This document shows positions 3,901 to 62,807 of a stretch of DNA of 64,000 nt, piece after piece. Each line of letters begins with the position of its first letter. Within the stretch, counting starts at the first letter, position 1. The DNA comes from Spirochaetales bacterium (GTDB lineage Bacteria; Spirochaetota; Spirochaetia; SZUA-6; JAFGRV01): assembly GCA_016935735.1 (NCBI GenBank), contig JAFGQK010000174.1:10386-74385 (forward strand), given 5' to 3'. Both the position numbers and the translations under genes were made by a program. The notes beneath the pieces are model-generated. The model ran no database searches. It was not told the origin of the DNA and worked only from the letters and a program-made list of their open reading frames with translations.

Positions 3901-4565
3901 TTCTGTTTTAGTTTAAAAAACAGGGCAATGTCACTGGTATGGATATCCTTCTTGTTTACGGAAATAACCTTTTTCCCTTCCAGGGGGACAATCTGCCCCG
4001 TATGGATGAGTTGTTCATCAACAAACATCGAAGCTTCGGGATGTTTGTTCACCAGGTAATAATGACCGTGAATCTCAAAGATTTCACAACTGCAATTATT
4101 GTATACAATATCAACGCTTTGCGGATCTTCACCGATAGCGATCTTCCTGTTTATATTGTCTGCAAAATCAAAATCATACATATCCACAAGCAGTGATTTG
4201 ATAAGGTCTGCATCTTCTTCCTGAATGGCAAAGAAACCGCACACATTATCGAAAATTAACAGTTCGCTTTCCGTAATACCGTCTGCCCCGAGGAGTTCGT
4301 ATATCTTCATGATTAACGATATCTTCCCCATATAATCCTTGCCATAGTCCCTGTTCACATTGTCCAGAATTGATTCAAGGACCGGTTTTTCTTTGAGTGC
4401 CTTGAGGAATCCCTGGAACACATCCTCGGCAACATTTTTCGGGTAGTACTGCTTGATGTATTGAGAAAAGAAATCGATCTCCTGTTCAGACACCTTGCCA
4501 TCCGCCTGGATGACATAAGCCATAAGATTGACCAGGTTCAGGTTTTCAGGTTTTATATCCGGCAT
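993..4565 (-). CDS. Multidomain ABC transporter: N-terminal TerB-like domain, two FHA-like domains, an ABC ATPase (Walker A, signature motif) and a C-terminal ABC-2 type permease.
   Basis: A Walker A motif (GASGAGKST) and the LSGGQRKR ABC signature are present, followed by 'LFFLDEPTSGLSS' as the Walker B. About six C-terminal TM helices are predicted. The N-terminus has a 'LMAYVIQADGKVSEQEIDFF' TerB/DjlA-N-like segment. Two segments resemble FHA domains ('IAIGEDPQSVDIV...HYYLVN...' and 'LIIGKNHVLF'). The probable true start is the ATG at 4565 (protein MPDIKPEN), which is preceded by a GGGGAG ribosome-binding site. The ORF-track start at 4643 is upstream of that and in frame. Confidence 0.8.
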   Translation of the reverse strand: MPDIKPENLNLVNLMAYVIQADGKVSEQEIDFFSQYIKQYYPKNVAEDVFQGFLKALKEKPVLESILDNVNRDYGKDYMGKISLIMKIYELLGADGITESELLIFDNVCGFFAIQEEDADLIKSLLVDMYDFDFADNINRKIAIGEDPQSVDIVYNNCSCEIFEIHGHYYLVNKHPEASMFVDEQLIHTGQIVPLEGKKVISVNKKDIHTSDIALFFKLKQNGYSKQMYLTYENQKMVKKIDFARADFRIDVSQNIIRLYKNTERNCSIKVNQQEIDTFSFINVSDSVVLQNSFKIPLREILKTESRDVYTLKEFTPEKDVLIISDQDQLADIYIDDENEKELYIPVKLHKVKDGVHFALHTEKLPYNIYLNGKEIHQGEKKEIKKDSTLIIGKNHVLFHTDTGKIITSIIHFSRFTVDHLTYRFKNNKIGIDDLSFEAKSGELIGIMGASGAGKSTLLQLLLGYLKPYSGQVLVNGADFYEHFDKVRNYIGYVPQDDLLFENLTVYQNLYYAAKIRMPGRSKKEINFLIESVLKDIGLLDKKNLKVGNPVQKVLSGGQRKRLNIGLELLADPDLFFLDEPTSGLSSKDSEMIISLLSRLSKRGKIVFVIIHQPGSDIYKKFDKLLLLDVGGKCAYYGNSLKAIRYFKKFFPLRDDFIECPSCGNVNPEIIFNVLEKKELGKDGLPLYTRKQDWGKGFEKIIRTLFRKPRQILLPHRRYDPDYWKQLYLSKITTAEEQEDQAEQVVTKELPPAKKRTIFTRLKILISLFRRNFVEKLNDRTNMIMTFLVPFILGLILSFLLKGGTSPYMFFANTQFTKYLFLSSIIFIFFGLMASVNEVIKDRPILIREKIVDIKPWQYLISKSITFSLFAFLQVVVFVSLGFVILKIPVFPPPELSHLPMGNFYLYFILMGFVTTYAAFALGILVSSLLRSGLAAFNIIPLIIIPQIIFGGMFVQFTDMGKVMNRVVPVYSDITFARWSYEGLLAGSEYFNPLYQVTDTDRIMLIRQEYEKGQWDSNEIIYTPIAQLKSRVKDPLPPKISVKEFEDRIEKELEKDYPELKETIKNYYAIDDMKNVYELKKGLSATELEEIKEIFIKAGPNGYYTEYLDYEVNEAVHKDFYDAGTVEWLKMLKRRDLAGITDWVTDVNIFPAHDKIWGCFVFRTIWYNLAVLLLHAALFHILTLFKLKKL

Positions 4566-4597
4566 GGTTTTTCTCCCCTGTAATAAGTGGATTTGTA

Positions 4598-4695
4598 TTG
4601 CGTTGGCAGCCAGGTTACATAGATTAGAATAAATAATAAGCACCTGGATAGTTTGTTTATTGAATTGTGGGCCTGGCCAACGTCATGATATGAAG
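4598..4695 (+). repeat. Copy A of the conserved intergenic element family (core only, lacking the long palindrome).
   Basis: The sequence 'attgcgTTGGCAGCCAGGTTAcatag...caCCTGGATAg...ttgTGGGCctgGCCaaCGTcATGatatg' aligns with the copies at 9262-9352, 21624-21767 and 30532-30674. Confidence 0.5.
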
Positions 4696-5921: not shown

Positions 5922-8900
5922 CTATTCAAGTTCTTTCAAACTGGCAAGAATCCGCTCTCTGTTTGCCCTGTGTTCTGCAAGCCTGTCGCGCTGTTTCTGC
6001 ACCACATCCGCCGGCGCCCGGTTTACAAAGTTTTCGTTATTCAGTTTCTTTTCACTCGCCTCAATCTCTTTTTCAACCCGGGAAAGTGCATCGTTCAGGC
6101 GCTTTTTTTCTTCTTCATCATCGATTACATCGTGAACAAAGATCTGGCATTCTGCAACAAGTTTGTATGCTGAACCGGGTATTCTCTTTGCCCCTGTCTT
6201 TACCGTGAGTTCACCGATTCCCCCGAGTTCCTCTACAATATAGGCTTTCCGGGAAATAAACTCTTTTATCCTGTCTACCGGACTTACCGTTACCACAAGT
6301 TTTTCCTTTGGCGGCACATTCCGTTCCGAACGTATTTCCCGTACTGCACGTGTTATGTCCTGTAATAAAGCGAATTCCGCATGGATGGTTTCATTTTCAA
6401 GTCCGGGTAAGGGAACGGGCCATGGGGCATTGATAAGCTGGTCTGTCACTGTTACTGCTGCCAGGTTTCCGAGTCCGCGGACAGGGGCATATTCACCAAG
6501 TATCTGCCAGAGATGTTCTGTAATAAAAGGAATAAACGGATGGAGGAGTCTTAATATCTGGTCCAGGCAGAAGGATAGAACCTGGGTTACGACTCCCCCG
6601 GATTGTTCATTCCTGTTTCCCAGTCTCGGCTTGATAAGTTCAACGTACCAGTCGCAGAAAGATGACCAGAAAAAATCACGTACGGCGTTCAGTGCAAAGC
6701 TGGGGTTGTAATTTTCAAGTCCCCTGTTCACTTCCCGGATGGTATTACTCAAGCAGTCAAGTATCCAGAGGTCTTCAAAGGCCAGGTCATTATGCGTTCT
6801 TTCTGTGGCCAGGACATTGTGCATGTTCATGAATGCAAAGCGGGCCGAATTCCATAGTTTTGTACAAAAGGCTCTCCCGATTTCGAATCGTTCACTGGTC
6901 AATTTCGCCTGTTTCAGATGGGGCAAAGTACCAAGAACGTCAAATTCCTTTTTACACGCATTACACACATAGCAGAATATATTCCCCCCGTGCTTTGTAC
7001 CCCCCAGGTCATTATGGTGCCCGCATTCCGGGCATATGGCAGTCACCGGGAGCCGGATATCCTGTGTCCCTGTCTGCATATCGGAAAGAACATAGCGTAT
7101 TGCATCTGTTCCGTATGCATTGATAATATCCACCGGATCAATGCCGTTTCCTTTGGATTTACTCATCCGGACGCCCTTGCCATCCAGGATATTGGCATGA
7201 ATAAACACATCGGTAAAAGGGATATCCCCGAGGCAGTAAAGACCGGCAAGCACCATCCGTGCAACCCAGAGGGTAATAATGTCCCGGCCCGTAATAAGGC
7301 AGCTTCCCGGGTAATAGTATGAAAGACAGTCCTCAATGCCGTCCCGGGGCTTGCCCAGGGGGGTCTGCCCTTCATCAACCTCTGCTGTTTCCGGCTCCGG
7401 CCACCCCAGGGTGGAAAAGGGCCAGAGTGCGGATGAAAACCAGGTATCCAGCACATCCGTATCCTGTTCATACCCATGGGATTCAAGTACCTTAATAATG
7501 TCTTCTGCATCGCTTAAAAGACAGATATCCACCCTGCATTCTTCATCCTCCTGCCATACAGGAAGATTAAACCTTTCAAGTCCTGCCCCTGTAACAAGTA
7601 CTTTTTTTTCTGTTTGTATGGTATTGATACTTATAACAAACTCCCTGCCCGCTTCCTTCTGTCTTTCACATAAACAGATAAGTTCTGCAAAAAGTGCTTC
7701 TGATGAAAGCTGATCCTTTTCAAATGTTTTTGACCAGACAGGGATCCGGTGTCCCCACCAGAGTTGCCTGCTTATAGGCCAGTCCCTTTTCTCTGAAAGC
7801 CAGTCCAGGTAGGTCTTTTTATACCGCTCAGGATGGATTGTTACCCTTCCGTCGATAATAGCATCCATGGCTGCCTGTACCAGTCCGGGGCTCTTGAACT
7901 CTTTGTCCGTACCCCGCCCCATAATAATACCATCATCAACATCACCCATTTTTATGAACCACTGGTCTGATAGAAACGGTTCGATCGGTGTCTTGCTCCT
8001 GTCACTGTGCCCGATCTCTACAGTCCTGTCTTCGATACGGTTTAAAAGCTTCTGCTTATCCATATCCTGTACCACCTTTTCCCGCGCAGCAAACCGGTCC
8101 ATCCCTGTATATGGTCCTGCGTTCTCATTCAGGGTGCCGTCCTCATTCAGGATATTGATAATGTCAATCTCATCCCTGTGACGCATCCACACTGCATAAT
8201 CGTTATAATCATGGGCAGGGGTTATCTTTACACAACCCGAACCGAGTTCGGGCTTTGCCCATTCATCCAGGATAAGCGGTATGGGTCTGTTTAAAAGGGG
8301 AAGGTTTACCTTTTTCCCGGCCATAGCCATATCACGGAGTTTCAGAAGCCCGGGAAGGATCGTCTTTTTCCGTTCATAAAGCCCTTCAAGTTCTTTTTCC
8401 AGTTCAGCTTTACTCCCCGGCCCTGCATGGGAAAACTCATGTTCCGTTTCCCTTATTTTATGATTCAAGGCACCTTCCGGTTCCGGGTGTACTGCCACCG
8501 CGGTATCGCCAAGCATTGTTTCCGGCCGGGTAGTTGCAACAATCACGGCACCCGGCCCCGATTCTCCCGGATCAATCACCGGGTAAATAAGATGCCAGAA
8601 ATGCCCGTCTACTGTTTCATAATACATCTCATCATCGGATATTGTCGTATGGAGAAAAACATCCCAGTTTACCAGCCGTTTTCCCCGGTAAATAAGACCG
8701 TCCCGGAACATCCGGAAAAAAGCATACCGTACAGCCCGTGCACAGACATTATCCATGGTAAACCGCTGCCGGTCCCAGTCGCAGCTGCATCCCATACGCT
8801 GCTGCTGTTCGATAATTCGCGCCTGGTACATGTCCTTCCATTTCCATATTCGTTTTACAAGACCTTCCCGTCCGATTTCGTGGCGTGTAATATTTTCAAG

Positions 8901-9257
8901 CTCTTTGAGCCTCTTTTCAACCACAGCCTGGGTAGCAATGCCTGCATGGTCTGTACCGGGCATCCAGAGGGTATTGTCCCCCATCATCCTGTGCCAGCGT
9001 ATAAGGAGATCCTGCATACCATTGTCCATGGCATGCCCCATATGAAGTGCACCGGTGACATTGGGAAGAGGCATCATTACTACATAGCGTTTATCCCGCT
9101 TTCGTTCATCCGGTACAGCGTGAAATGCGCCTCCCTTTAACCAGAGTTTATAAATTTTTCCCTCCACTTCGGAAGGTGTATACGTTTTCGATAATTCGGC
9201 CTTTTCACTCATCTTCTTATACCTGACTTTCCTTATTATGCTATTCTGATTTACCAT
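5922..9257 (-). CDS. valS: Valine--tRNA ligase.
   Basis: The HIGH-type motif 'HMGHA' and the KMSKS motif 'KMSKSKGN' are present. The N-terminus 'TYTPSEVEGKIYKLWLKGGAFHA' is typical of ValRS, and the C-terminus is a coiled coil. An alternative start is M at 9212 (MSEKAEL...). Confidence 0.9.
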   Translation of the reverse strand: MVNQNSIIRKVRYKKMSEKAELSKTYTPSEVEGKIYKLWLKGGAFHAVPDERKRDKRYVVMMPLPNVTGALHMGHAMDNGMQDLLIRWHRMMGDNTLWMPGTDHAGIATQAVVEKRLKELENITRHEIGREGLVKRIWKWKDMYQARIIEQQQRMGCSCDWDRQRFTMDNVCARAVRYAFFRMFRDGLIYRGKRLVNWDVFLHTTISDDEMYYETVDGHFWHLIYPVIDPGESGPGAVIVATTRPETMLGDTAVAVHPEPEGALNHKIRETEHEFSHAGPGSKAELEKELEGLYERKKTILPGLLKLRDMAMAGKKVNLPLLNRPIPLILDEWAKPELGSGCVKITPAHDYNDYAVWMRHRDEIDIINILNEDGTLNENAGPYTGMDRFAAREKVVQDMDKQKLLNRIEDRTVEIGHSDRSKTPIEPFLSDQWFIKMGDVDDGIIMGRGTDKEFKSPGLVQAAMDAIIDGRVTIHPERYKKTYLDWLSEKRDWPISRQLWWGHRIPVWSKTFEKDQLSSEALFAELICLCERQKEAGREFVISINTIQTEKKVLVTGAGLERFNLPVWQEDEECRVDICLLSDAEDIIKVLESHGYEQDTDVLDTWFSSALWPFSTLGWPEPETAEVDEGQTPLGKPRDGIEDCLSYYYPGSCLITGRDIITLWVARMVLAGLYCLGDIPFTDVFIHANILDGKGVRMSKSKGNGIDPVDIINAYGTDAIRYVLSDMQTGTQDIRLPVTAICPECGHHNDLGGTKHGGNIFCYVCNACKKEFDVLGTLPHLKQAKLTSERFEIGRAFCTKLWNSARFAFMNMHNVLATERTHNDLAFEDLWILDCLSNTIREVNRGLENYNPSFALNAVRDFFWSSFCDWYVELIKPRLGNRNEQSGGVVTQVLSFCLDQILRLLHPFIPFITEHLWQILGEYAPVRGLGNLAAVTVTDQLINAPWPVPLPGLENETIHAEFALLQDITRAVREIRSERNVPPKEKLVVTVSPVDRIKEFISRKAYIVEELGGIGELTVKTGAKRIPGSAYKLVAECQIFVHDVIDDEEEKKRLNDALSRVEKEIEASEKKLNNENFVNRAPADVVQKQRDRLAEHRANRERILASLKELE

Positions 9258-9261
9258 CCTG

Positions 9262-9352
9262 CTAAAATAACAAGGTTAAATCAAAATGGCTGAACGCTGG
9301 CCACCGGGTTAAATAAACCGGGTTATGGGTGTAACCATCGTTATGATATGGT
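9262..9352 (+). repeat. Copy B of the conserved intergenic element family, carrying the core plus a half-palindrome remnant.
   Basis: The sequence 'taaaataacaaggttaaatcaaaatggctgAACGCTGGCCACCGGGTTAaataAACCGGGTTAtgggtgtaaccatCGTTATGatatgg' is homologous to copies C and D, including 'aaaataacaag' from the palindrome arm. Confidence 0.5.
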
Positions 9353-9538
9353 AGTTATATAATTAATGAAACAGGAAGTCAATGTAAAGGGTGTTCTTTC
9401 AGCGGTTCTGAATATGAGATTTATGCTATGTGAGTATTTTAAAAATTTATATTGCAATAGGTGTTTTTATCTATCATAATGTGTTATAAGGAAGGATATC
9501 CTGTATAAATGCGATAGTATATAACAAGGAGGTATTCG

Positions 9539-9931
9539 ATGAAACAAATTAAAATCCTTATCATTGTTATGAGTTTTTTGTTATTAACTTCTGTTCTTTG
9601 TGCAGATACAATGAACTGGATAATACACATAATGGCCGGTATGAAGTTTACCGTGCATTTTAACGAAAAGGATTCCAAATACAAGGGATTATTAAAAAAA
9701 GAACCCCTCGATTTTTTACGAAGCGGGGAATCATATGATGTTATTTATAAAAACGGTGAATTCTTGTGCAGCGGGTATCATAATAAAAGGAAGCAAAAGG
9801 GTACATGGGGCGATTCAAGGGGAAATCCCCTGAACAACCAGATTTCTCTCTGGGGCAGGATATTTGCATTTGACGGGGAAGGAAATATCTATGATGCCGA
9901 GCATGGTCTTGTCGGACACTTAACAAGATAA
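9539..9931 (+). CDS. Hypothetical small secreted protein.
   Basis: The N-terminal signal peptide is 'MKQIKILIIVMSFLLLTSVLCA'. I recognise no conserved domain. Confidence 0.45.
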   Translation: MKQIKILIIVMSFLLLTSVLCADTMNWIIHIMAGMKFTVHFNEKDSKYKGLLKKEPLDFLRSGESYDVIYKNGEFLCSGYHNKRKQKGTWGDSRGNPLNNQISLWGRIFAFDGEGNIYDAEHGLVGHLTR

Positions 9932-9965
9932 TAAAAAATTTTTAATTCAAATATCTTCCTCACTC

Positions 9966-9994
9966 TTGACATCCAGGTAAGTTGGGTGTACGTT
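9966..9994 (+). promoter_or_regulatory. Candidate sigma70-type promoter (TTGACA-N17-TACGTT) upstream of the LeuB-family gene.
   Basis: A 'TTGACA' at 9966-9971 and a 'TACGTT' at 9989-9994 are separated by a 17-nt spacer. An AAGGAGG ribosome-binding site lies just before the ATG at 10050. Confidence 0.3.
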
Positions 9995-10049
9995 TTCATA
10001 TCTTTTTAAAATTTCACTACTGCATACAGGGAAAGATCAAGGAGGAACC

Positions 10050-11096
10050 ATGTATAACATAGCGGTAATCGGCGGGGACGGCACAGGCCCGGAAGTAGTC
10101 CGGGAAGGAATAAAGGTATTAAAAAGTGCGGGTGATAAGTTCACTATCAAGTTTGATTTTCACTATTATGATTTTGGCGGGGACAGGTATCTCAAGACAG
10201 GGGATACACTTCCTGATACTGCAATAACTGAGTTAAAGCAATATGATGCAATCTACCTGGGCGCTATCGGACATCCGGATGTGAAGCCGGGTATCCTTGA
10301 AACCGGGATACTTCTTAAACTCCGCTTTACCCTGGATCAGTACATTAACTTAAGGCCGATAAAGCTGTATCCGAATGTGGAAACACCCCTGGCAAACAAA
10401 GGACCGGAAGACATAGATTTTATTGTCGTGCGGGAGAATACGGAAGGACTCTACTGTAGTATCGGGGGTTTTTTAAAAAAAGGAACACCGGACGAAGTGG
10501 CAACCCAGGAAATGGTCAATACAAGGAAAGGGGTTGAACGCTGTATCCGTTATGCTTTTGAAGCCACCCGGAAGCGGAATAAAAAGAAGACCCTTACCCT
10601 CTGTGCAAAGACAAATGTCCTTACCTATGCCCATGATCTCTGGTGGCGGGTGTTTATGGAAGTATCAAAAGAATATACGGACATTAAACCTGAATATGCT
10701 CATGTTGATGCAACCACCATGTGGATGGTCAAGAATCCCGAGTGGTTCGATGTCATCGTGACAACAAATATGTTCGGGGACATTATTACCGATCTCGGCG
10801 CCATGATCCAGGGAGGAATGGGAATTGCCGCGGGCGGGAACATCAATCCGGAAGGTGTTTCAATGTTTGAACCCATCGGCGGATCCGCACCAAAGTATAC
10901 AGGGAAAAATATTATCAATCCCCTTGCTGCCATCTTTGCCGCCCAGATGATGCTCGATGTACTTGGAGAAGAACAGGCAGCACGTGCAATAGAAGAATCA
11001 GCAGTAAAGACTATAAGCAGGATGAAAAGCATGGCAGCAGGGAAAATGGGATTTACCACCACAGAGATCGGGGATATGGTTGCAGATGGTGTATGA
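10050..11096 (+). CDS. 3-isopropylmalate dehydrogenase family (LeuB/tartrate/isocitrate DH-like) NAD-dependent decarboxylating dehydrogenase.
   Basis: The protein starts 'MYNIAVIGGDGTGPEVV', is 348 aa long, and has the typical Asp-rich active-site motif 'GDIITDLGAMIQGGMG'. Its stop overlaps the next gene's start by 4 nt (ATGA). Confidence 0.8.
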   Translation: MYNIAVIGGDGTGPEVVREGIKVLKSAGDKFTIKFDFHYYDFGGDRYLKTGDTLPDTAITELKQYDAIYLGAIGHPDVKPGILETGILLKLRFTLDQYINLRPIKLYPNVETPLANKGPEDIDFIVVRENTEGLYCSIGGFLKKGTPDEVATQEMVNTRKGVERCIRYAFEATRKRNKKKTLTLCAKTNVLTYAHDLWWRVFMEVSKEYTDIKPEYAHVDATTMWMVKNPEWFDVIVTTNMFGDIITDLGAMIQGGMGIAAGGNINPEGVSMFEPIGGSAPKYTGKNIINPLAAIFAAQMMLDVLGEEQAARAIEESAVKTISRMKSMAAGKMGFTTTEIGDMVADGV

Positions 11097-12061
11097 AACT
11101 GGTTATACAGATACCCTGCTATAATGAAGAGGAAAGCCTCCCCATTACCTTAAAGGAACTTCCACGTGAGGTTGATGGTTTTGATGAAGTGAAGTGGTGT
11201 GTGATTGATGACGGCAGTACGGACAAAACAGTGGAAGTGGCCAGGGCCTTCGGGGTGGATTATATTGTAAGTTTAAAACATAACAAGGGATTGGCCAGGG
11301 CCTTTATGAAAGGACTTGAGGTCTGCCTGAAGTCGAATGCCGATGTTATTGTGAATACGGATGCGGATAATCAGTATAATGCAGGTGATATCCCCAGACT
11401 CGTTCTTCCCATTATAAACGGGGAAGCCGATATGGTGATAGGCGAAAGACCGATAAACAAGATAAAGCATTTTTCTCCTTTAAAAAAATTATTGCAGAAA
11501 GTCGGCAGTTTTGTCGTAAAAGCGGTTAGCGGTACGCAAATTGCGGATGCACCAAGCGGGTTCCGGGCTATTTCCAGGTATGCTGCCATGCATCTGAATA
11601 TATTCAGCACGTATACCTATACCCTGGAGTCGATTATTCAGGCGGGGAAAAAGAATCTGAAAATCACTTCTGTTAAAATACATACAAACGATCATATCCG
11701 GCCGTCACGATTAATGAAAAGCACTTTTTCTTATATTATAAAATCGATTATCACGATTATCCGGATTTTTGTTGTATATAATCCCTTCCGTTTTTTTATG
11801 ACCCTGGCGATAATGCTGTTTATCCTGGGATTGATTCCCGGGATCCGGTATGTCATCCTTTTTATTGCCCGTGCGGAAAGCGGACATATTCAATCACTCA
11901 TTCTTTCGGCCATACTCCTTATTATGAGTGTGCAGATCGGTGTTCTTGCCTTTATCGGGGACCTTAATGCAGTGAACAGAAGTATCATGGAAGACATTCA
12001 GTATATGTTAAGGAAAAAGAATTACAAGGAGTATGATTTTGAGAAAGATGATTTTGAATGA
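11093..12061 (+). CDS. Family 2 glycosyltransferase (polyprenyl-phosphate sugar synthase, DPM1/ArnC/GtrB-like) with two C-terminal TM helices.
   Basis: The 'VIDDGSTDKT' and 'NTDADNQY' (DxD-like) motifs are present, and the C-terminus has hydrophobic helices. Confidence 0.8.
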   Translation: MKLVIQIPCYNEEESLPITLKELPREVDGFDEVKWCVIDDGSTDKTVEVARAFGVDYIVSLKHNKGLARAFMKGLEVCLKSNADVIVNTDADNQYNAGDIPRLVLPIINGEADMVIGERPINKIKHFSPLKKLLQKVGSFVVKAVSGTQIADAPSGFRAISRYAAMHLNIFSTYTYTLESIIQAGKKNLKITSVKIHTNDHIRPSRLMKSTFSYIIKSIITIIRIFVVYNPFRFFMTLAIMLFILGLIPGIRYVILFIARAESGHIQSLILSAILLIMSVQIGVLAFIGDLNAVNRSIMEDIQYMLRKKNYKEYDFEKDDFE

Positions 12062-12659
12062 TGATATTCCTGCCGGTAACTGGGAGAATAAGTACGAATC
12101 GAAAAATCCTGTTGCCAGGTTTCTCATGCAACGGTTTATGAAAACCATGAAATTAATCATATTACAAAGGAAAAGCGAGATCACTTCCATATCCGAAGTC
12201 GGCTGCGGTGAAGGATATGTAACCAGTGAAATCCATAATATGGTTCCTTTTGTAAAGATAAAAGCGAGTGATTTTTCAGGAGAAATTATAAAAACAGCAG
12301 GAGAAAAATTTCCATTCCTCGATTTTTATGTTAAAAGTATCTACGATCTGGGTCCGGAAGACAGCGCGGATTTCATTATCTGCTGCGAAGTCCTGGAACA
12401 CCTCGAATTCCCGGGAAAGGCCCTGGAAAGGCTTGCTGTTATTACAGGAAAATACTGTCTTTTAACTGTCCCGAATGAACCCCTCTGGAGATGCCTGAAT
12501 ATGATACGGGGTAAATATCTCAATGATTTCGGGAATACCCCGGGACATATACAACACTGGTCATTACATCAATTCGTAAAGCTTGTTAAAACATATATGA
12601 ATGTATTAATGGTAAAATTCATTCTCCCATGGACACTGGTATTGAGTAAAAAAAAGTGA
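12033..12659 (+). CDS. Class I SAM-dependent methyltransferase.
   Basis: The glycine-rich motif 'EVGCGEGYV' is present. The gene overlaps the upstream glycosyltransferase. Confidence 0.65.
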   Translation: MILRKMILNDDIPAGNWENKYESKNPVARFLMQRFMKTMKLIILQRKSEITSISEVGCGEGYVTSEIHNMVPFVKIKASDFSGEIIKTAGEKFPFLDFYVKSIYDLGPEDSADFIICCEVLEHLEFPGKALERLAVITGKYCLLTVPNEPLWRCLNMIRGKYLNDFGNTPGHIQHWSLHQFVKLVKTYMNVLMVKFILPWTLVLSKKK

Positions 12660-13618
12660 AAACAAAAAAATCGAATATCATCATCAGTATTGCAGGATAT
12701 AGTATTTTAATTCTTTCCTTTGGTTTTATTATTTATTCACTTAAGAATATCGATCTGAAATTCCTCTTTACTGAAAAACACATCCCCTTTCTTTTTTTCC
12801 TGATTCCTCTTTTTCTCCTTTATTCCGGGGTTGTCCTTCTTCTTGCAGTGAATTTCAGTGTTACCATGAGCAGGATCAACAAAGACAAGAAAATCAACCT
12901 TTTGATTGTTCCCGGATATTTAAAAGCCAATATCGGAAAATATCTTCCCACCAACCTGTTCCATTTTGCCGGCAGACACATTCTTTTCAATACTATGGGT
13001 TATGAAAATAAAAAAATACTGGCCGGTAATATCATCGAGTTCATAATCCTTATTGGCATTTCCCTTCTTCTTTTACTCACCGGCATACTGGGGGGCTTTA
13101 TTTCCATTCCACAAGCCGCTTTCGATATGATTCTAAGGAACAGGATACTCTTCACTGTCATTATTACAGCGGCTGTTCTCATCATCATTATCTTATTAAT
13201 AAAATTCAGAATAAAGAATTTTATTGCCCGGGTTACTTCCCTTTTGTCCGGTCTTAAACCAGGGATTGTGCTGCTTCTCGTACTCTCCTATTCCGTCTTT
13301 TTTATTGTATCCGGCACCATGTTATATAGTATTCTTACTTATTTTTCAGGGATTCCCTTTTCCATGAAGGATCTTCTCTATGCCCTTTTTTCTTTTTCTG
13401 TCTGCTGGCAGATCGGTTTTATAAGTCCCGGGGTTCCCGGGGGAATCGGGGTAAGGGAAGCATTACTGCTTTTGTTTTTTAAGGACTTTTATGGGGAGAC
13501 AATAGCATTTTATTCAGGAATTGTCTTAAGATTAATCACAATTTCCGGTGATGTTATTGCTTTTTTTTATGCATTTTTATTAAATAAGCTATTCAGAAAT
13601 ATCAGGACAGAACAATGA
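12656..13618 (+). CDS. Polytopic membrane protein of the flippase-like family (lysylphosphatidylglycerol-synthase TM region / UPF0104-like).
   Basis: About eight TM helices are predicted, and a 'PGGIGVRE' motif is present. It is translationally coupled (4-nt overlap) to the methyltransferase and to the downstream GT-C gene. Confidence 0.5.
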   Translation: MKTKKSNIIISIAGYSILILSFGFIIYSLKNIDLKFLFTEKHIPFLFFLIPLFLLYSGVVLLLAVNFSVTMSRINKDKKINLLIVPGYLKANIGKYLPTNLFHFAGRHILFNTMGYENKKILAGNIIEFIILIGISLLLLLTGILGGFISIPQAAFDMILRNRILFTVIITAAVLIIIILLIKFRIKNFIARVTSLLSGLKPGIVLLLVLSYSVFFIVSGTMLYSILTYFSGIPFSMKDLLYALFSFSVCWQIGFISPGVPGGIGVREALLLLFFKDFYGETIAFYSGIVLRLITISGDVIAFFYAFLLNKLFRNIRTEQ

Positions 13619-16014
13619 TGAGAAAAATAGTAAACAGCATTACAAAACCATTAAAGGGTACATTGATAACGGGTGGAAAGTACTTTGCTTCAAACTGGAT
13701 CGAACTTATTTTTAAACTCGTCTATATTATCATTCTTGTTATTATTGTACAGTCAATTTTCGCCTTTGGTTTCAAAGCATGGCTTTACCCGATTAAACTG
13801 TACCAGTATTATGATGAATGTTCATATATAAGTATGGGAAAATATTTCCGTCTTTTTTCCCCCTTTACTCTTTTCAAGGATTATCTTTTAAAAGACAAAC
13901 CGATTCCTCCTGTTTACCATGAATTTCACAGCCGGGCTGTTTACTGGTCGTATATTCTGTCGTTACCCATGAAACAATCCACCGATGTGGAATACCTGCA
14001 TCATTTCCGTGCGCTCTTTTTTGCATTTGCCACCCTGGTATTTTTTTTCATTGGCCATAAACTGGCGGGATTTACCGGGGGTGTTGCAGCTGCCGCTTTC
14101 TGGATCGGGACACCCATACTCAATTACTGGGGGAAATTCTTTATGACGGATGTTCCTTCGCTTGCTTTTATTGCAGCGGGATACCTCTTTTTACTCTATT
14201 CCGACCGGTCCCGGTTAAGTGCACTCCTGGGTGGTTTTCTCATAGGGTTTGGAGCATTTACCAGGTTTACGACAATTGTCCTCGCTTTTCCCGCCCCGTT
14301 TATTATACTGGCGAATTTCTTTCATCCGTTTAAACGGCGAAACTACCAGATCATTGGTGAACTGGCAAAAACCCTTTCCGGCTTTGTCTTTGCCACACTC
14401 CCTTTCCTTGTTTTAAGTACCTTATTATACAGAAATCCCCTCCAGCCTTTTAATGCAGCCAGGTATGCCGTGAACCAGTCCCCGGTAGATGATCCTGGTT
14501 ATTATATCCGTAATATCTGGATAGAGGCGGGTCTCCCCATGAAAATCGGTGCAATCCTTTCGATTCTTGCCGTGTTCATCCTTGCTCTTTCCTGGGGACT
14601 CAAACAGGTAACGGTGAATGAAAAAAAAGGAAAGACCCCGCTCATAAACCTTGTCAGTTTCCCGAAAAGCTTTGTTTCCGGTCTTCTCTACCACGGGATT
14701 ATCCTGGTTTCTCTCATTCTTACCACCTCCATTTATTTAATGGGGGTTACGGGTATTCCCCACAAACTTCCAAGGTATATTGCAGGCGGGGTCGTTCCCC
14801 TTATCATTATTGCAGCAATGGGATTCGGGGCATTTGAGAAATTGATTCTCCAGTTTTTAAGGATTCCCTTAAAACGGATTACCGATTCTTTTAACTCATT
14901 CATGCTCTCGGTTGCCCGGGAACTCAAGAGGATTTCCCCGCGAAAGGAATTCTTAAAGATAAGAAATGCAGTGGTCCGTTTTTATCTCCGGCTTAAGAGG
15001 GAAGATGTTTTATCGATTGTATCGTCCGTTATATGGTGGTTTCACCATGAAAATCTTATCCGTGTTTTCAAAAGAACAAGCCTGTATTTTCAGAAGCGCT
15101 TCCGTTTTATCTGCAATATCTGGTTTATCGTTGGTTTCCTGTTCCTTGTCATTTTAGGTATAAGCATTCATGCATTAAGGGGTGTCCCGCAGAATGTATG
15201 GGACTCCACCATGAACAGGAAGTTCGATTTTAAATACAGTATTCCCGGAGAGATTGTAAAAAATACAGCAGGCCACATTGTAAGGCGGTTACAGCCCGAA
15301 TATAACTTCGCAACGACGACACCTGCGGGAATAGACTGGGACATGAGTATTAATGAAAAATTAAGACTCGTAGAAGAAGACCCGGGAAAGGCTTACAGCA
15401 CACTGAAATATATTTATGGCTATTATCTTGACCTGTACAGTGAACTCAATAAACTGATGAAACCTACAGAGGTGTTATATGTGGACAGGTTGCTTTATAT
15501 TCCCTTTACGCCCGGCTATATAACGTATGCTTCCATATGGCTGGATGATTATGTTCAGTACGGCTACTCCCTTCAAACCCTTATTAGACGGGGATATTTC
15601 CCCTACACCGGGTATGTTGTCGTTTTTAAATACCGGGGGTCGGAGTTTTTCAAGGATGAGGAAACAGAAGAGGAAAGCGGGGGCGAAGAAGAAAGTGCCG
15701 GTGATGAGAAAAAAGAGGAAAAGGCGTATGATTACTTCCGGTCCATAAACCGGCCTGCGGTGCAGCAGCATGGAAGTTTCGAATATGTAAAGAGTGTGAG
15801 TTATTTTGAAATTTACCGGTATAAAGGGGGAAAACCGTTCCCTTATCTTACAGAAGGGGAAGGAGAAAGAGAGGAAATGACGGAATCCATTGGCGAGACG
15901 GGTGGGAAGAAAGAAAACGAAACGATGATGTTTCTGAAGGAACAGTATAAGAAGTTTTTCGAGTTCTGGCTTGCGATTTTTGAAAAGGAAAAGAAGGAAG
16001 AAGCCGCAGAGTAG
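13615..16014 (+). CDS. GT-C fold membrane glycosyltransferase (ArnT/PMT-like) with an acidic C-terminal tail.
   Basis: The protein is 799 aa. The N-terminal half is multi-TM, the C-terminal half is soluble, and it ends in a Glu-rich tail 'EETEEESGGEEESAGDEKKEEK'. Confidence 0.55.
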   Translation: MMRKIVNSITKPLKGTLITGGKYFASNWIELIFKLVYIIILVIIVQSIFAFGFKAWLYPIKLYQYYDECSYISMGKYFRLFSPFTLFKDYLLKDKPIPPVYHEFHSRAVYWSYILSLPMKQSTDVEYLHHFRALFFAFATLVFFFIGHKLAGFTGGVAAAAFWIGTPILNYWGKFFMTDVPSLAFIAAGYLFLLYSDRSRLSALLGGFLIGFGAFTRFTTIVLAFPAPFIILANFFHPFKRRNYQIIGELAKTLSGFVFATLPFLVLSTLLYRNPLQPFNAARYAVNQSPVDDPGYYIRNIWIEAGLPMKIGAILSILAVFILALSWGLKQVTVNEKKGKTPLINLVSFPKSFVSGLLYHGIILVSLILTTSIYLMGVTGIPHKLPRYIAGGVVPLIIIAAMGFGAFEKLILQFLRIPLKRITDSFNSFMLSVARELKRISPRKEFLKIRNAVVRFYLRLKREDVLSIVSSVIWWFHHENLIRVFKRTSLYFQKRFRFICNIWFIVGFLFLVILGISIHALRGVPQNVWDSTMNRKFDFKYSIPGEIVKNTAGHIVRRLQPEYNFATTTPAGIDWDMSINEKLRLVEEDPGKAYSTLKYIYGYYLDLYSELNKLMKPTEVLYVDRLLYIPFTPGYITYASIWLDDYVQYGYSLQTLIRRGYFPYTGYVVVFKYRGSEFFKDEETEEESGGEEESAGDEKKEEKAYDYFRSINRPAVQQHGSFEYVKSVSYFEIYRYKGGKPFPYLTEGEGEREEMTESIGETGGKKENETMMFLKEQYKKFFEFWLAIFEKEKKEEAAE

Positions 16015-16023
16015 AATTCGCCT

Positions 16024-16743
16024 GTGATTGCCGGAATAAACTCAAGGCTGGATATATTAATGAACATAACTGCTGAAACGATTAAAGAATTTACTATGAA
16101 TTCAGGAAGTGATCTTTGTGGAATTGCTTCGATAAATCGATTTGTTAATTTACCGCCATTATCTAATCCAAAGGATATATTAAAAACTGCAAATTCCGTA
16201 ATTGTTATCGCGAAGAAATTTCTCAGGAGCAGTATAAATCTAAACAGTACTATACCTTATACGATTATTCGTAATCATTTGAGTAAAGAAATTGATGAGA
16301 TAACAATAGGATTGTCATATTTTATTGAAGCACATAATTATATTGCTTTCCCAACAGGTGCAATTGAACCATGTAATTTTAATAAGAATTTGTTAAAAAC
16401 AGTTGGTTTAATATCATTAAAAAATGCTGCATATCTGGCAGGATTAGGTGTAATCGGGAAAAACACCCTGTTAATTACCCCAGAATTCGGTAATATGGTC
16501 TGGTTGGGAGCTGTAATTACTTCTCTGGAATTAGAGCCTGATCCAATTCTTGAAAAAAATCCATGTCACAAAAATTGTAAAATATGTATAGATAATTGTC
16601 CTGTAAAAGCGCTTGATGGGAGTAAATTTATGGATCAACAAAAATGCTGGGATTTTGCGTTTGGTGAATCAGAAGAAGGAGAATGGAGAATAAAATGTTT
16701 TAAGTGTAGACAAATATGCCCATTCTCAAATGGTTATAAATAA
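16024..16743 (+). CDS. 4Fe-4S cluster protein, possibly a short member of the epoxyqueuosine-reductase (QueG) family.
   Basis: Cys motifs 'CHKNCKICIDNCP' and 'CFKCRQICP' are present. An alternative start is the ATG at about 16061 (MNITAE...). Confidence 0.4.
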   Translation: MIAGINSRLDILMNITAETIKEFTMNSGSDLCGIASINRFVNLPPLSNPKDILKTANSVIVIAKKFLRSSINLNSTIPYTIIRNHLSKEIDEITIGLSYFIEAHNYIAFPTGAIEPCNFNKNLLKTVGLISLKNAAYLAGLGVIGKNTLLITPEFGNMVWLGAVITSLELEPDPILEKNPCHKNCKICIDNCPVKALDGSKFMDQQKCWDFAFGESEEGEWRIKCFKCRQICPFSNGYK

Positions 16744-16926
16744 TCGAGTTTACTGCGCTTACGTCCGGGGATACCAGTGAGTATAATTGATGATAACGGA
16801 TATTCTTTTCAATGGTTCCGGGAATCAACCCGGACGGGAAATTATATATCCTGGTACTTAATACAATCTCACGTTGAAGATCGGCGTCCCCAAATAGTGC
16901 AGGTGATCGGGGGGGGAGAAGGAAAA

Positions 16927-17142
16927 ATGAAGAAAGCAATAATCATTGGTGCAAGTTCCGGTATTGGAAAAGAGCTTGCAAAAATATTGTCGAATGAAAA
17001 TTATATTGTCGGTCTTGCTGCAAGAAGATTACACTTATTAGAAAATTTACAGCGTGAATTAAAAAATAAATCAATTGTTACCTATATTGATATATCAAAA
17101 TATAATGAAATTGAGGAAACGTTAGCAAGACAGTTTTTTTGA
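16927..17142 (+). pseudogene. Truncated short-chain dehydrogenase/reductase (SDR). Only the N-terminal ~70 aa are present.
   Basis: 'MKKAIIIGASSGIGKELAKIL...' contains the classical TGxxxGxG Rossmann motif of SDRs. The ORF stops after 72 codons, whereas full-length SDRs are about 250 aa. Confidence 0.5.
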
Positions 17143-17168
17143 CAGAAAAATGCTATTTCTTAAGCATA

Positions 17169-17444
17169 TCATTTGACAATATATAAAAAATCATTAAAGA
17201 ATTCTCTTAAAGTCTTTTGAATTGATTCCTTTCTCATAATTTCTTGATATCTTGAAAATTCTTCGTGTGTCATTTCCCGGCCTTCTTTATAAGCTTTCTC
17301 ATTTAAATCCAGGAGTTCTTTAATATCTTTCTGAATATTTTCCTGTTTTTCATTTTCAGTAATATACTCTTTAACCTGTCTTTCCAATTCGTTTCCTTTC
17401 ATAAAAAATTGTCCTTTCTCTAAATAATTTATGTAAAAAATCAT
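17169..17444 (-). CDS. Hypothetical small helical protein.
   Basis: A 91-aa ORF, charged and coiled-coil-like, sits in an AT-rich region. I recognise no domain. Confidence 0.25.
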   Translation of the reverse strand: MIFYINYLEKGQFFMKGNELERQVKEYITENEKQENIQKDIKELLDLNEKAYKEGREMTHEEFSRYQEIMRKESIQKTLREFFNDFLYIVK

Positions 17445-18099
17445 TTTTCTGCTTTATTTTATATACCCATTTAACACCTTACCCTTTTTTAAATTGGCGT
17501 TTTCTTGGGTAATATTGTACCCGGGTCTTATCAATAATATCACTCATGATTTTATGCCCCTGACATCATTTTTAAGACTTCCGGTTCCTCAATTTTTGTT
17601 CCGGGCATTCTCTTTTATCCTTCAAGTCTTTTCTGTTTATTTCTTCCAATTCTTGCTTTTTGTATCTTTCATTAGAAAATCCTTAACAAAATTATGCTAT
17701 ACATTAGTATAGTATAATTTTGTTATATGTCAATAGTTTTTAAATAGTTTCTTAAATAGTTCTTTAAAAATGAAACAACCTTTGCAGCATAATTCCCGCC
17801 TGTTCCTTATATAGGATTCTTTATTGCAGGAAATAAAACTGGATTTCCTCATCTTTAAGGTTATTCTCTCTTTTATCCATAAAATAATCCTGGATAAAAG
17901 ACTGCTAAAAAATGACAAACAGTATTGTAATTTTCAGAAAGATGTATTAGTGTATTTCGAATTTGCTTGCTTTTTCGTTAAAGGGATGTACGCAACAGGG
18001 TGAGACATAGCGAGGGCGCGGTTAATAGTGGCTGTTACAGGAAAAACCACTCAATTTAGACAGTAAATAATAATTGAATACGATTTAATAGAGTGAAGA

Positions 18100-18648
18100 A
18101 TGAAATTTAAGGAACTGGAAACAAATAGATTATTTCTTCGAAGATTTAAGAAAGAAGATATAAATTTTATCTATACTCATTTTTCAAATAAGGATGTTTC
18201 AAAATATCTCTATGACAGCGAACCACCCGGAAATATCGATGAAGCAAATTGTATTCTTGAATGGTGTATGGATTTTAATTCTGAAAGACATATTCGCTGG
18301 TGTATACTATTGAAAAAGGGACTTAAACCCATAGGCACTTGCGGATTTCATAATTATGATATACAGAATAATTCAGCTGAAATAGGTTACGATTTGTCTA
18401 ACATATATTGGAATAAAGGATATATGTCGGAAGCATTAAAAAAAATGTTATTATATGGATTTGACGATCTTTGTCTAAATAGAATTTATGCTTGCGTTTA
18501 TGTAGAAAACATTCGATCAAATAAATTATTAGAAAAATCGGGCTTTACCCTGGAAGGGATAATTAGGGATAAACATCTATTTCGTGGAAAATATTACGAT
18601 CACAATTTATTCTCTTTGCTTAAACGTGAGAGATCTGAATGCATATAA
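18100..18648 (+). CDS. GNAT N-acetyltransferase, RimJ/RimL-like.
   Basis: The protein is 182 aa with an Acetyltransf_3-like pattern. Confidence 0.65.
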   Translation: MKFKELETNRLFLRRFKKEDINFIYTHFSNKDVSKYLYDSEPPGNIDEANCILEWCMDFNSERHIRWCILLKKGLKPIGTCGFHNYDIQNNSAEIGYDLSNIYWNKGYMSEALKKMLLYGFDDLCLNRIYACVYVENIRSNKLLEKSGFTLEGIIRDKHLFRGKYYDHNLFSLLKRERSECI

Positions 18649-18699
18649 AAAAATCCAGGTTCCATTGTCTTTTTTTAAAATCTATGGTAATATATATAT

Positions 18700-18972
18700 G
18701 TGTTTCTAACCCTGTTTAAAGCTGGGAGGGGACGAGACAAATTCTTCACAATTCATGACTTGCAAAAGGACCTTTTTTACAAGTACACATTGGCAGTATA
18801 TTCAGGGAATGTTGGTGGATCCATCCGGGAAAAGCAATATGCGTTTGACTCAGAGGATGAAAAAAAAGCTGTTTTGCAGGCGCTTTTTAAACAAAAAATA
18901 AAAGAAGGGTATAAGGTTATCTATGAGTATCCTAAAAAACTCAAAGGTATATTGACAAGGGATACCGCTTAA
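18700..18972 (+). CDS. WGR-domain-like small protein.
   Basis: The protein is 90 aa. 'FKAGRGRDKFFTIHDLQKDLFYKYTLAVYSGNVG' resembles the WGR domain signature. Confidence 0.4.
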   Translation: MFLTLFKAGRGRDKFFTIHDLQKDLFYKYTLAVYSGNVGGSIREKQYAFDSEDEKKAVLQALFKQKIKEGYKVIYEYPKKLKGILTRDTA

Positions 18973-62790: not shown

Positions 62791-62807
62791 ATATAACCTC
62801 CTTTTTA

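Follow-up and report, generated by a model that had tools for sequence, protein, structure and literature searches.

Three-component systems are the established paradigm of periplasmic glycosylation (PMC11127046, PMC7389260). Those considered here are GtrA/GtrB/Gtr*, ArnC/ArnEF/ArnT, CsbB/GtcA/YfhO, and ORF15/14/12 of C. youngae, in which the flippase is a GtrA, SMR or MATE protein. UPF0104 proteins have been treated as flippases as well, in case of MprF/PplT, GpgF, and AglD (bioRxiv 10.1101/2022.03.11.483950; PMC12713373), and the flippase role of GpgF was called unverified (PMC12713373). In archaea, a conserved neighbourhood joins a UPF0104 protein (arCOG00899), a PMT/STT3-like protein (arCOG00563), and an AglD-like GT2 (arCOG00897) (PMC5898192); MJ_1079/MJ_1080 is an example of this module, which is predicted only (Makarova et al. 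2015, PMC5898192). The Spirochaetales locus described here contains the same families with the same predicted logic, but it is bacterial, and its GT2 and UPF0104 proteins are encoded by separate genes with a methyltransferase gene between them.

This locus is part of six consecutive open reading frames (Table 1) in the 64-kb window, i.e., the whole stretch of DNA that was analysed. With a probability of about 75%, the six frames represent three evolutionarily independent units that were made contiguous here, namely leuB, a four-gene cassette (GT2, methyltransferase (MT), UPF0104, and GT-C), and the Fe-S gene of an AT-rich islet. The gene identities proposed in an earlier, sequence-only reading were confirmed by the domain calls, which are Iso_dh for the leuB product, Glycos_transf_2, class I methyltransferase, a weak LPG_synthase_TM, a borderline PMT_2, and Fer4_16/QueG-like for the products of the genes that follow.

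Table 1. Features of the leuB-cassette-islet region (positions refer to the window).
Feature	Position	Strand	Length or basis
leuB upstream region	9960..10049	+	sequence read directly
leuB	10050-11096	+	348 aa
GT2 polyprenyl-phosphate glycosyltransferase (predicted)	11093-12061	+	322 aa
class I SAM methyltransferase (MT)	12033-12659	+	208 aa from ATG 12033
UPF0104/YbhN/PplT-family membrane protein	12656-13618	+	320 aa
GT-C-fold glycosyltransferase	13615-16014	+	799 aa
short QueG/RdhA-superfamily 4Fe-4S gene	16024-16743 (from ATG: 16060)	+	239 aa (227 aa)
AT-rich islet	16015..~18700	.	GC3 and gene content
SDR remnant in islet	16927-17142		71 aa, without continuation in any frame
GNAT gene in islet	18100-18648		

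All six frames are located on the same strand with near-zero spacing, as had been noted before. The accompanying statement that each gene overlaps the next by 4 nt or abuts it holds for leuB/GT2 (ATGA, the ATG of the GT2 gene overlapping the TGA of leuB), MT/UPF0104 (GTGA), and UPF0104/GT-C (ATGA), but not for GT2/MT, with an overlap of 29 nt from ATG 12033 or 23 nt from TTG 12039, nor for GT-C and the Fe-S gene, which are separated by 9 nt up to GTG 16024 or 45 nt up to ATG 16060. The start of the methyltransferase gene is ambiguous, with ATG 12033, TTG 12039 (situated 7 nt after AAGGAG), and ATG 12048 as candidates; the NCBI calls are TTG 12039 (206 aa) and, for the Fe-S protein, ATG 16060 (227 aa). 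No intergenic space within the six-gene block is large enough for a terminator, and at the leuB/GT2 boundary, where a terminator would contradict an operon, the overlapping frames leave none. Terminator-like matches in 9200-18200 are not in excess (9 found, 8.0 expected from shuffles), and those on the plus strand within the block are all situated inside genes and have weak stems. The block has the common strand, the lack of terminators, and the overlapping or abutting frames of a single operon. Since leuB and GT2 overlap by 4 nt (ATGA) and no terminator is present, leuB and the cassette are likely to form one transcript in this genome.

The same tight packing can be read as a sign of one six-gene pathway, in which, ahead of the transfer of the sugar by the GT-C, the sugar or the acceptor is oxidatively decarboxylated by a LeuB-like enzyme and oxidised or reduced by the Fe-S protein. 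A second assembly contains the same junctions (see below), and tartrate dehydrogenase (TDH), the sister group of the LeuB subfamily, provides the second-best PDB match of the leuB product (3flk, 272 bits, after M. tuberculosis LeuB 1w0d with 316 bits). Against this pathway stands the identity of the dehydrogenase. To count as LeuB, a protein has to reach the curated equivalog cut-off of the HMM NF002898 (393 bits) over its full length, and the leuB product attains 520.7 bits (E 1.8e-156), with residues 2-346 aligned to model positions 5-343 of 347. It fails the cut-offs of the models for tartrate dehydrogenase TtuC (TIGR02089, 356.8 vs 470.4 bits; NF006048, 322 vs 501), homoisocitrate dehydrogenase (HICDH; AksF2, 271 vs 540 bits), and isocitrate dehydrogenase (IDH; at most 231 bits vs cut-offs of 484-585). 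In LeuB, the substrate loop Glu-x-Gly-(L/I)-Leu recognises the isopropyl group (Glu/Leu loop of T. thermophilus). In the PDB-match alignments, this loop reads ILE84-TGILLKLR in the window and LERGLLLRLR in M. tuberculosis LeuB, whereas P. putida TDH has SLWGSLLKFR (W-G-S-L-L), unlike E84-T-G-I-L-L of the window. Thus the inspection of the loop, which had been suggested as a check, came out in favour of LeuB.

Orthologs of this LeuB, 70-88% identical, are found across many phyla. Among 80 ortholog loci with 70-80% identity, 34 have leuA, leuC or leuD within 10 kb; leuD is situated directly upstream in 17 and asd directly downstream in 18 loci, and the typical gene order is ilvBNC-leuA-leuCD-leuB-asd. 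None of leuA, leuC, and leuD was found within the 64-kb window, and leuB is a solitary gene in this lineage. Its frame is uninterrupted and as long as those of its relatives; the start codon is preceded by a strong Shine-Dalgarno sequence (AAGGAGGA) and, as a -35-like box, by CTCTTGACA, a motif that also occurs upstream of leuB in the related locus L081. We presume that this upstream region acts as promoter. Compared to M. tuberculosis-type LeuB (NF002898 / PRK03437; 1w0d), the full-length match, the loop, the catalytic residues, and the leu-operon orthologs are the same and no functional difference was observed; the gene of this lineage is merely detached from leuCD and, in the window, arranged head-to-tail with an unrelated cassette. 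Judged by profile scores, substrate loop, and the ilv/leu operons of its orthologs, leuB is most probably an ordinary housekeeping gene outside the cassette, encoding 3-isopropylmalate dehydrogenase for leucine synthesis, and the earlier view that the enzyme is probably not a leucine LeuB is not supported.

Conserved linkage of leuB and the cassette is lacking. Searches by tblastn with GT2, MT, UPF0104, GT-C, and the Fe-S protein gave no match in the 80 leuB ortholog loci, and the cassette is next to leuB neither in any of these (0/80) nor in the three loci with the closest leuB relatives (0/3), L081 (88%), L082 (86%), and L092 (87%). Instead, a CBM3-GH5-dockerin cellulase gene is located 260-390 nt downstream of leuB in all three. 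In L081 and L082, the two downstream regions that were read, a hairpin with a T-run, i.e., a terminator, comes after the leuB TAA. The MAG of L081 does contain the cassette, but on another contig, L084, where GT2-MT-UPF0104-GT-C occur without leuB, preceded by 306 nt of AT-rich non-coding DNA and followed by a convergent AMP-binding gene. Furthermore, MT-UPF0104-GT-C are present in L090 and L091, and the 3' end of the UPF0104 gene together with GT-C in L083; the contigs of L083 and L090 begin inside the cassette and are uninformative on leuB. The cassette is followed by an ABC exporter in L090 and by convergent genes in L083, and in L083, L084, and L090 the Fe-S gene is absent after GT-C. In the distant module L085, GT-C, UPF0104, and GT2 occur together and the methyltransferase is absent, and more distant GT-C homologs stand alone. 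From its gene content in these loci, the cassette can be regarded as a co-inherited module, and a functional coupling of leuB with it is not supported by the gene neighbourhoods. The neighbourhood search that had been proposed did not recover the six-gene set as one unit.

In case of the Fe-S gene, base composition is a further argument against a common pathway. GC3 amounts to 0.21 in this gene, compared to 0.40-0.47 from leuB through GT-C (GT-C itself 0.46), and to 0.19-0.24 in the islet, compared to 0.40-0.49 in most flanking genes. The gene adjoins a truncated SDR, and the islet also comprises a GNAT gene and about 950 nt that contain no convincing gene. The Fe-S protein scores 65.5 bits with TIGR00276 (QueG; cut-off 200), matching only model positions 132-212 of 337, and 25.5 bits with Fer4_16 (cut-off 30); its PDB match to QueG 5d6s (E 1.4e-14) covers the core region only. 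It has the core and the 2x[4Fe-4S] region in common with the QueG/reductive dehalogenase superfamily, but with 227-239 aa, as against 399 and 437 aa in solved QueG chains, it falls below the cut-off and lacks the full-length architecture of epoxyqueuosine reductase QueG. Unlike QueG, it groups with short uncharacterised paralogs, and over its full length it is approximately 25% identical to short Clostridium plasmid proteins annotated as “epoxyqueuosine reductase” or “4Fe-4S double cluster”. Of the small 4Fe-4S protein that had been suggested, the 4Fe-4S assignment stands, whereas the protein is a short QueG/RdhA-superfamily paralog and not a small ferredoxin. Considering composition and gene content, the Fe-S gene is a short QueG-like paralog belonging to a foreign, partly decayed, AT-rich islet and located outside the cassette. 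Its foreign composition and its absence after GT-C elsewhere speak against an action of the Fe-S protein on the sugar or acceptor, as the LeuB identity and the unconserved linkage do against oxidative decarboxylation by the dehydrogenase. The comparative context has largely refuted the six-gene pathway, and we regard it as highly improbable.

From 10833 to 17946, the window agrees at every base with L093, an independent Logan assembly that covers both the leuB-3'/GT2 and the GT-C/Fe-S junction. Upstream of 10832, the Logan contig diverges into a different, distant leuB allele, and therefore one of the two assemblies is chimeric inside leuB. Since assemblers evidently cross between genomes within this gene, and neither flank shows a synteny with relatives by which the join could be tested, the leuB-GT2 adjacency might have arisen from metagenome mis-assembly through the conserved leuB, or a 3' leuB remnant might precede the cassette while an intact leuB is located elsewhere. 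We argue from the allele comparison that the Logan contig rather than the window is chimeric: the 5' and 3' parts of the window leuB are equally near to L081 and L082 (amino acid identity 89/85% and 86/89%, third-position identity 0.52/0.46 and 0.40/0.40), but the Logan 5' part has just 53-69% nucleotide identity to them. Furthermore, the last 264 nt of leuB are joined in-frame to GT2 in both assemblies, GC3 shows no break between ValRS and GT-C, and the leuB frame is intact and of regular length, so that an artefact of this kind appears improbable. In the rearrangement that made the three units contiguous, the cassette would have been cut off from its own upstream region, and leuB from the terminator still present in its relatives. 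For this reason, transcription of the cassette probably starts at the leuB promoter, and its translation is probably coupled to that of leuB, a coupling that would be due to the rearrangement and not to shared chemistry.

The first cassette gene encodes a Glycos_transf_2 protein (PF00535, 84.6 bits) with an N-terminal GT-A domain, a DAD motif at residues 91-93, and two C-terminal TM helices at about residues 230-294, and it possesses the GT-A fold, the DxD-type motif, and the C-terminal membrane anchor of a three-component GT2. Sub-threshold NCBIfam matches comprise AglJ, dolichyl-P-hexose transferase, PpgS, and ArnC, with archaeal AglJ as the best, and the nearest PDB entries are dolichol-P-mannose synthase (DPMS; 5mlz, E 3e-12) and ArnC. 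It is 81% identical to the first gene product of the L084 cassette, with which it shares the N-terminus MKL. We take it for a polyprenyl-phosphate GT2 of the DPMS/ArnC/GtrB/AglJ-like type with a presumed lipid donor. The class I methyltransferase (Pfam Methyltransf_23/12/11/25) is soluble, without any TM segment, and has 59% and 79% identity to its counterparts in the L084 and L090 cassettes, respectively. A SAM methyltransferase as accessory enzyme is a difference to the three-component systems.

The UPF0104 protein is polytopic, with about 8 TM helices, and conserved in the cassette. It aligns over nearly the full length of PF03706 (LPG_synthase_TM; 7-295 of 302) with 19.6 bits compared to a gathering score of 33.4, homologs at 72-74% identity carry a precomputed PF03706 or a YbhN annotation, and a PG..GGIG..E motif is invariant. 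Among PDB folds, its AF2 model (pLDDT 86) credibly matches just P. aeruginosa MprF (9goe_A, probability 1.00, TMq 0.50, 334 columns), with a Foldseek E-value of only 0.02; all remaining fold matches have probabilities of 0.20 or less. Based on this model, we consider the protein a candidate lipid-linked-sugar flippase with an MprF flippase-domain-like fold.

The GT-C is composed of a TM domain (~24-415), whose first loop contains the motif D67-E68, an additional TM segment at ~495-525, a soluble C-terminal domain (~526-745), and an acidic disordered tail. No PDB sequence match was found, and identity to solved GT-Cs in the fold-search alignments is 8-13%, but the GT-C fold and the acidic motif in the first extracytoplasmic loop are present. 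Compared to the three-component systems, it carries a distinctive C-terminal domain of ~270 aa. Protein O-mannosyltransferases (PMT, GT39) are characterised by a PMT/PMT_2 HMM match, a DE motif in loop 1, and luminal MIR domains in loop 5; the PMT_2 match of the GT-C is borderline. Neither sequence nor an association with an arnABCD Ara4N pathway places it in GT83 ArnT. For a three-component scheme, a flippase candidate that is not a GtrA, SMR or MATE protein is unusual, and the GT-C subfamily is rare.

With a GT2 near DPMS/ArnC and a flippase model that matches MprF, the polyprenyl-phosphate-sugar route that had been proposed for GT2, flippase-like protein, and GT-C is retained. On the cytoplasmic face, the membrane-anchored GT2 would load a sugar onto polyprenyl phosphate, the methyltransferase probably modifies the lipid-linked sugar or its precursor ahead of export, the UPF0104/PplT protein would carry the lipid-linked sugar across to the periplasmic leaflet, and the GT-C, whose first periplasmic loop bears the DE motif and whose C-terminal domain is periplasmic, would transfer the sugar to a periplasmic acceptor, putatively a glycolipid, a glycan or a protein. 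Alternatively, the cassette could modify membrane glycerolipids without a polyprenyl carrier: the GT2 would glycosylate a phospholipid or glycolipid, a PmtA-like methyltransferase would methylate the head group, and UPF0104 would flip the product, as proposed for MprF, GpgF, and HexF, with a separate or downstream role of the GT-C. All experimentally studied UPF0104 contexts indeed involve glycerolipids, i.e., Lys-PG (MprF), GlcN-PG (GpgSDF), HexSDF, and E. coli PplT with ClsB (PMC12713373; bioRxiv 10.1101/2022.03.11.483950), and rare fusions of PplT with a SAM methyltransferase have been reported (bioRxiv 10.1101/2022.03.11.483950). We nevertheless consider this alternative unlikely.

Most likely, as far as family and motif assignments tell, the products of the cassette decorate the cell envelope with a lipid-carried sugar. 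The apparent six-gene pathway is probably an accident of gene order and not new biochemistry. Some regulatory coupling might result from it, e.g., an envelope modification that tracks leuB expression.

Assignment of the dehydrogenase at the head of the six-gene block to LeuB or to the tartrate (TDH), homoisocitrate (HICDH) or isocitrate (IDH) dehydrogenases was made by curated equivalog cut-offs and genomic context. The protein scores 520.7 bits against the NCBIfam LeuB equivalog NF002898 (cut-off 393). Tartrate dehydrogenase was rejected due to sub-cut-off scores with the NCBIfam models (356.8 vs. 470.4 and 322 vs. 501), as were homoisocitrate and isocitrate dehydrogenase, since the protein is below cut-off on HICDH and on all IDH models. 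Among solved structures, M. tuberculosis LeuB (1w0d, 316 bits) is the closest, followed by P. putida tartrate dehydrogenase (272 bits), and in the PDB alignments the substrate loop E84-T-G-I-L-L is of the LeuB type, matching E-R-G-L-L-L of M. tuberculosis, unlike W-G-S-L-L of tartrate dehydrogenase. LeuB orthologs are 70-88% identical across the Spirochaetota, Desulfobacterota, Latescibacterota, Omnitrophota, Bacillota, and others, and this extreme conservation is the pattern expected for a housekeeping enzyme. As judged from these scores and from orthologs located beside leuA, leuC or leuD, the window dehydrogenase is a genuine LeuB, and the sequence-only reading of an enzyme outside leucine biosynthesis is unsupported.

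For 80 leuB ortholog loci, flanks of up to 10 kb per side, as contigs permit, were compared by clustering of ORFs and Pfam annotation of recurrent neighbours. These neighbours are the aconitase large and small subunits (LeuC, LeuD), HMGL-like+LeuA_dimer (LeuA), Asd, IlvC, IlvN, and IlvB. At least one of leuA, leuC and leuD is situated near leuB in 34 of the 80 loci; leuD is located directly upstream in 17 and asd directly downstream in 18. Among the nine Spirochaetota loci, leuCD-leuB was observed once and a solitary leuB with variable neighbours eight times. The 64-kb window contains an asd gene and none of leuA, leuC and leuD. The search for a linkage between leuB and the downstream cassette (GT2, methyltransferase, UPF0104/PplT protein, and GT-C) in other genomes was negative: homologs of these four proteins or of the Fe-S protein occur in 0 of the 80 loci, and the linkage is found in 0 of the 3 closest relatives.

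In these three leuB loci, L081 (88%), L082 (86%), and L092 (87%), a gene encoding a CBM3 + GH5 cellulase + type I dockerin protein is located 260-390 nt 3' of leuB (L081 10719-12731, L082 11306-13345, L092 1915-3954). A homolog of it is absent from the window. In case of L081 and L082, for which the downstream sequence was read, the leuB stop codon TAA is followed by a clear hairpin and a T-run. Cellulases with a dockerin, found here in MAGs of Spirochaetales, are a hint of cellulosome-like organisation.

The cassette itself has few relatives. For the window GT-C, 14 were found in a word-indexed search of 5.8 billion proteins, and 4 clusters at E<1e-30 among 1.84 billion representatives, beyond which only generic PMT_2-type matches (E~1e-8) occur. 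The complete cassette is present in L084, a locus of the MAG that also carries the L081 leuB (GCA_016934975.1), with identities of 81% (GT2), 59% (methyltransferase), 64% (UPF0104), and 64% (GT-C); upstream of it lie 306 nt of AT-rich DNA without coding sequence, and downstream a convergent AMP-binding gene. In L090, methyltransferase (79%), UPF0104 (74%), and GT-C (80%) are followed by an ABC exporter, and in L083 the UPF0104 3' end and GT-C (72%) by convergent genes. In the more distant L085, GT-C (39%), a PF03706 protein, and GT2 (52%) are grouped in divergent arrangement without a methyltransferase; still more distant GT-C homologs stand alone. These contexts point to GT2-(methyltransferase)-UPF0104-GT-C as the heritable unit, with leuB and the Fe-S gene outside it. 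A gene for an apolipoprotein N-acyltransferase (LNT_N + CN_hydrolase) is situated approximately 1 kb away from the L085 module (10001-16818). This proximity resembles the link between Ppm1 and Lnt in actinobacteria and may be a hint that lipoproteins or lipoglycans serve as acceptors.

The layout of six translationally coupled genes holds largely as described, except for the GT2/methyltransferase junction and the identity of the last protein. Overlaps of 4 nt were observed for leuB/GT2 (ATGA), methyltransferase/UPF0104 (GTGA), and UPF0104/GT-C (ATGA). The GT2 and methyltransferase genes overlap by 29 nt if the latter starts at ATG 12033, or by 23 nt in case of TTG 12039 (NCBI's 206-aa call), which has AAGGAG 7 nt before it. 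Between the GT-C stop and the start of the Fe-S gene there are 9 nt (GTG 16024) or 45 nt (ATG 16060, NCBI's 227-aa call).

Features of the window discussed in the text
Feature	Coordinates	Strand	Description
TerB-ABC fusion gene	993-4643	-	1216 aa; N-terminal TerB domain fused to ABC ATPase and ABC-2 permease; unusual architecture
ValRS gene	5922-9257	-	1111 aa, long for the family
Six ORFs (leuB, GT2, methyltransferase, UPF0104, GT-C, Fe-S)	10050-16743	+	348, 322, 208, 320, 799, 239 aa, in order
AT-rich islet	16015-18700		~2.7 kb; QueG-like gene, SDR remnant, ~950 nt without convincing gene, GNAT
SDR remnant	16927-17142		71 aa, truncated
91-aa ORF	17169-17444	-	sole ORF in the ~950-nt stretch
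GNAT gene	18100-18648		
asd	34412-35467		
Long ORF	57436-62832	-	1798 aa, TTG start

In case of ValRS, the 414 tRNA-synt_1 profile positions (Pfam) are spread over ~700 residues, which indicates large insertions.

Due to the identical GT2 N-terminus (MKL...) in the window and L084, the join in the window is placed exactly at the leuB stop/GT2 start. Synteny mapping of the relatives' flanking genes against the window revealed only leuB and the cassette in common. A terminator scan of 9200-18200 yielded 9 terminator-like sites vs. 8.0 expected from shuffled sequence, which is chance level; scans for tRNAs and Rfam families gave no matches in the window, and neither a T-box nor a leader was found 5' of leuB. 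Co-transcription of leuB with the cassette is probable in this genome, as the result of a rearrangement by which the terminator of leuB and the region originally upstream of the cassette were lost. That genes of a MAG are tightly coupled in translation is no evidence that they share a function, and the main value of the comparison lies in an avoided misannotation, as a housekeeping leuB was nearly recast as a sugar-modifying enzyme.

A contig of an independent assembly (Logan, SRR13394437) is identical to window 10833-17946 and spans both the leuB-3'/GT2 and the GT-C/Fe-S junction. Its first 500 nt, corresponding to window 10335-10832, represent a distant leuB allele with about 57-70% nucleotide identity, and thus one of the two assemblies crosses genomes inside leuB. 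A chimeric leuB in the MAG is unlikely, because its 5' and 3' parts are equally close to L081 and L082, with amino-acid identities of 89/85% and 86/89% and third-position identities of 0.52/0.46 and 0.40/0.40. The 5' leuB part of the Logan contig is only 53-69% nucleotide-identical to L081/L082. The likelier chimera, as far as these identities indicate, is the Logan contig, formed through a conserved leuB stretch.

The match of the Fe-S protein to QueG (65.5 bits vs. a cut-off of 200; PDB 5d6s, E 1.4e-14) and to reductive dehalogenases is confined to the core, and the protein is ~25% identical over its full length to short proteins of Clostridium plasmids annotated as "epoxyqueuosine reductase" or "4Fe-4S double cluster". 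With a GC3 of 0.21 its gene groups with the SDR remnant, the 91-aa ORF, and GNAT (0.19-0.24), compared to 0.40-0.47 for leuB through GT-C and 0.39-0.49 for most other flanking genes; due to this base composition it is a member of the AT-rich islet and outside the cassette. A continuation of the SDR after a frameshift was ruled out, as no frame carries it onward. The islet has the appearance of a segment that was acquired horizontally and is in decay. Considering this composition and the inheritance of the cassette without either gene, the proposed participation of LeuB and the Fe-S protein in the glycosylation chemistry is unsupported.

Within the cassette, GT2 matches PF00535 and, below threshold, the NCBIfam models of AglJ, dolichyl-P-hexose transferase, PpgS, and ArnC. 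Among solved proteins, P. furiosus dolichol-P-mannose synthase and ArnC are the closest to it. A DAD motif is present, and the C-terminus forms two TM helices. The methyltransferase is a soluble class I SAM enzyme with no specific family match. The UPF0104 protein matches PF03706 below threshold, yet over its full length; close homologs are annotated as YbhN/UPF0104, and the protein carries an invariant PG-PGGIG-RE motif. A PDB sequence search with it gave spurious decarboxylase matches only, and the sole credible PDB match of its AF2 model (pLDDT 86) is P. aeruginosa MprF (probability 1.0, TMq 0.50). BLASTP against the L085 PF03706 protein revealed no significant similarity, and the two are therefore assigned to one family by HMM and fold evidence, not by pairwise similarity. 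GT-C (AF2 pLDDT 82, pTM 0.82) had 0 PDB sequence matches at E<=10. Its nearly invariant D67, within YYDECSY directly after TM1, is by position the counterpart of the DE motif in loop 1 of PMTs and ArnT. The TM domain is followed by a C-terminal α/β domain (~526-745), ~28-30% identical even in distant homologs, and by an acidic disordered tail.

These family, fold, and motif features support the reading of GT2, flippase-like protein, and GT-C as a glycosylation core. Established three-component periplasmic glycosylation relies on a synthase of the lipid-phosphate sugar, a flippase, and a transferase of the GT-C type (PMC11127046; PMC7389260), a scheme which the cassette fits with the UPF0104/PplT protein in the flippase slot. 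This family is implicated in Lys-PG flipping (MprF), was proposed as flippase for GlcN-PG (GpgF) and archaeal glycosylation (AglD C-terminal domain), and occurs in a conserved archaeal neighbourhood with PMT/STT3-like and AglD-like GT2 proteins (bioRxiv 10.1101/2022.03.11.483950; PMC12713373; PMC5898192). Lacking a signal peptide and TM segments, the methyltransferase would be cytoplasmic, with the lipid-linked sugar or a precursor of it as substrate, by analogy with ArnD, epimerases, and deacetylases, which are auxiliary enzymes in other glycosylation systems. The cassette is a new member of a well-known kind of system, distinguished by its uncommon flippase type and rare GT-C subfamily.

It is tempting to speculate, at a probability of roughly one in four, that it represents an uncharacterised bacterial three-component glycosylation, in which UPF0104/PplT, and not GtrA, SMR or MATE, flips a polyprenyl-phosphate sugar O-methylated while lipid-linked by a dedicated SAM methyltransferase, and a rare Spirochaetales-restricted GT-C with its own C-terminal periplasmic domain moves the methyl-sugar to the spirochaete envelope, here under leuB-promoter control that would tie envelope decoration to amino-acid supply. 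The trio of GT2, UPF0104, and GT-C, hitherto predicted mainly for archaea, has a bacterial representative in this cassette, which is compact and clonable and thereby suited to a test of polyprenyl-phosphate-sugar flipping by stand-alone UPF0104/PplT proteins. Its GT-C delimits a very small subfamily in a group of Spirochaetales.
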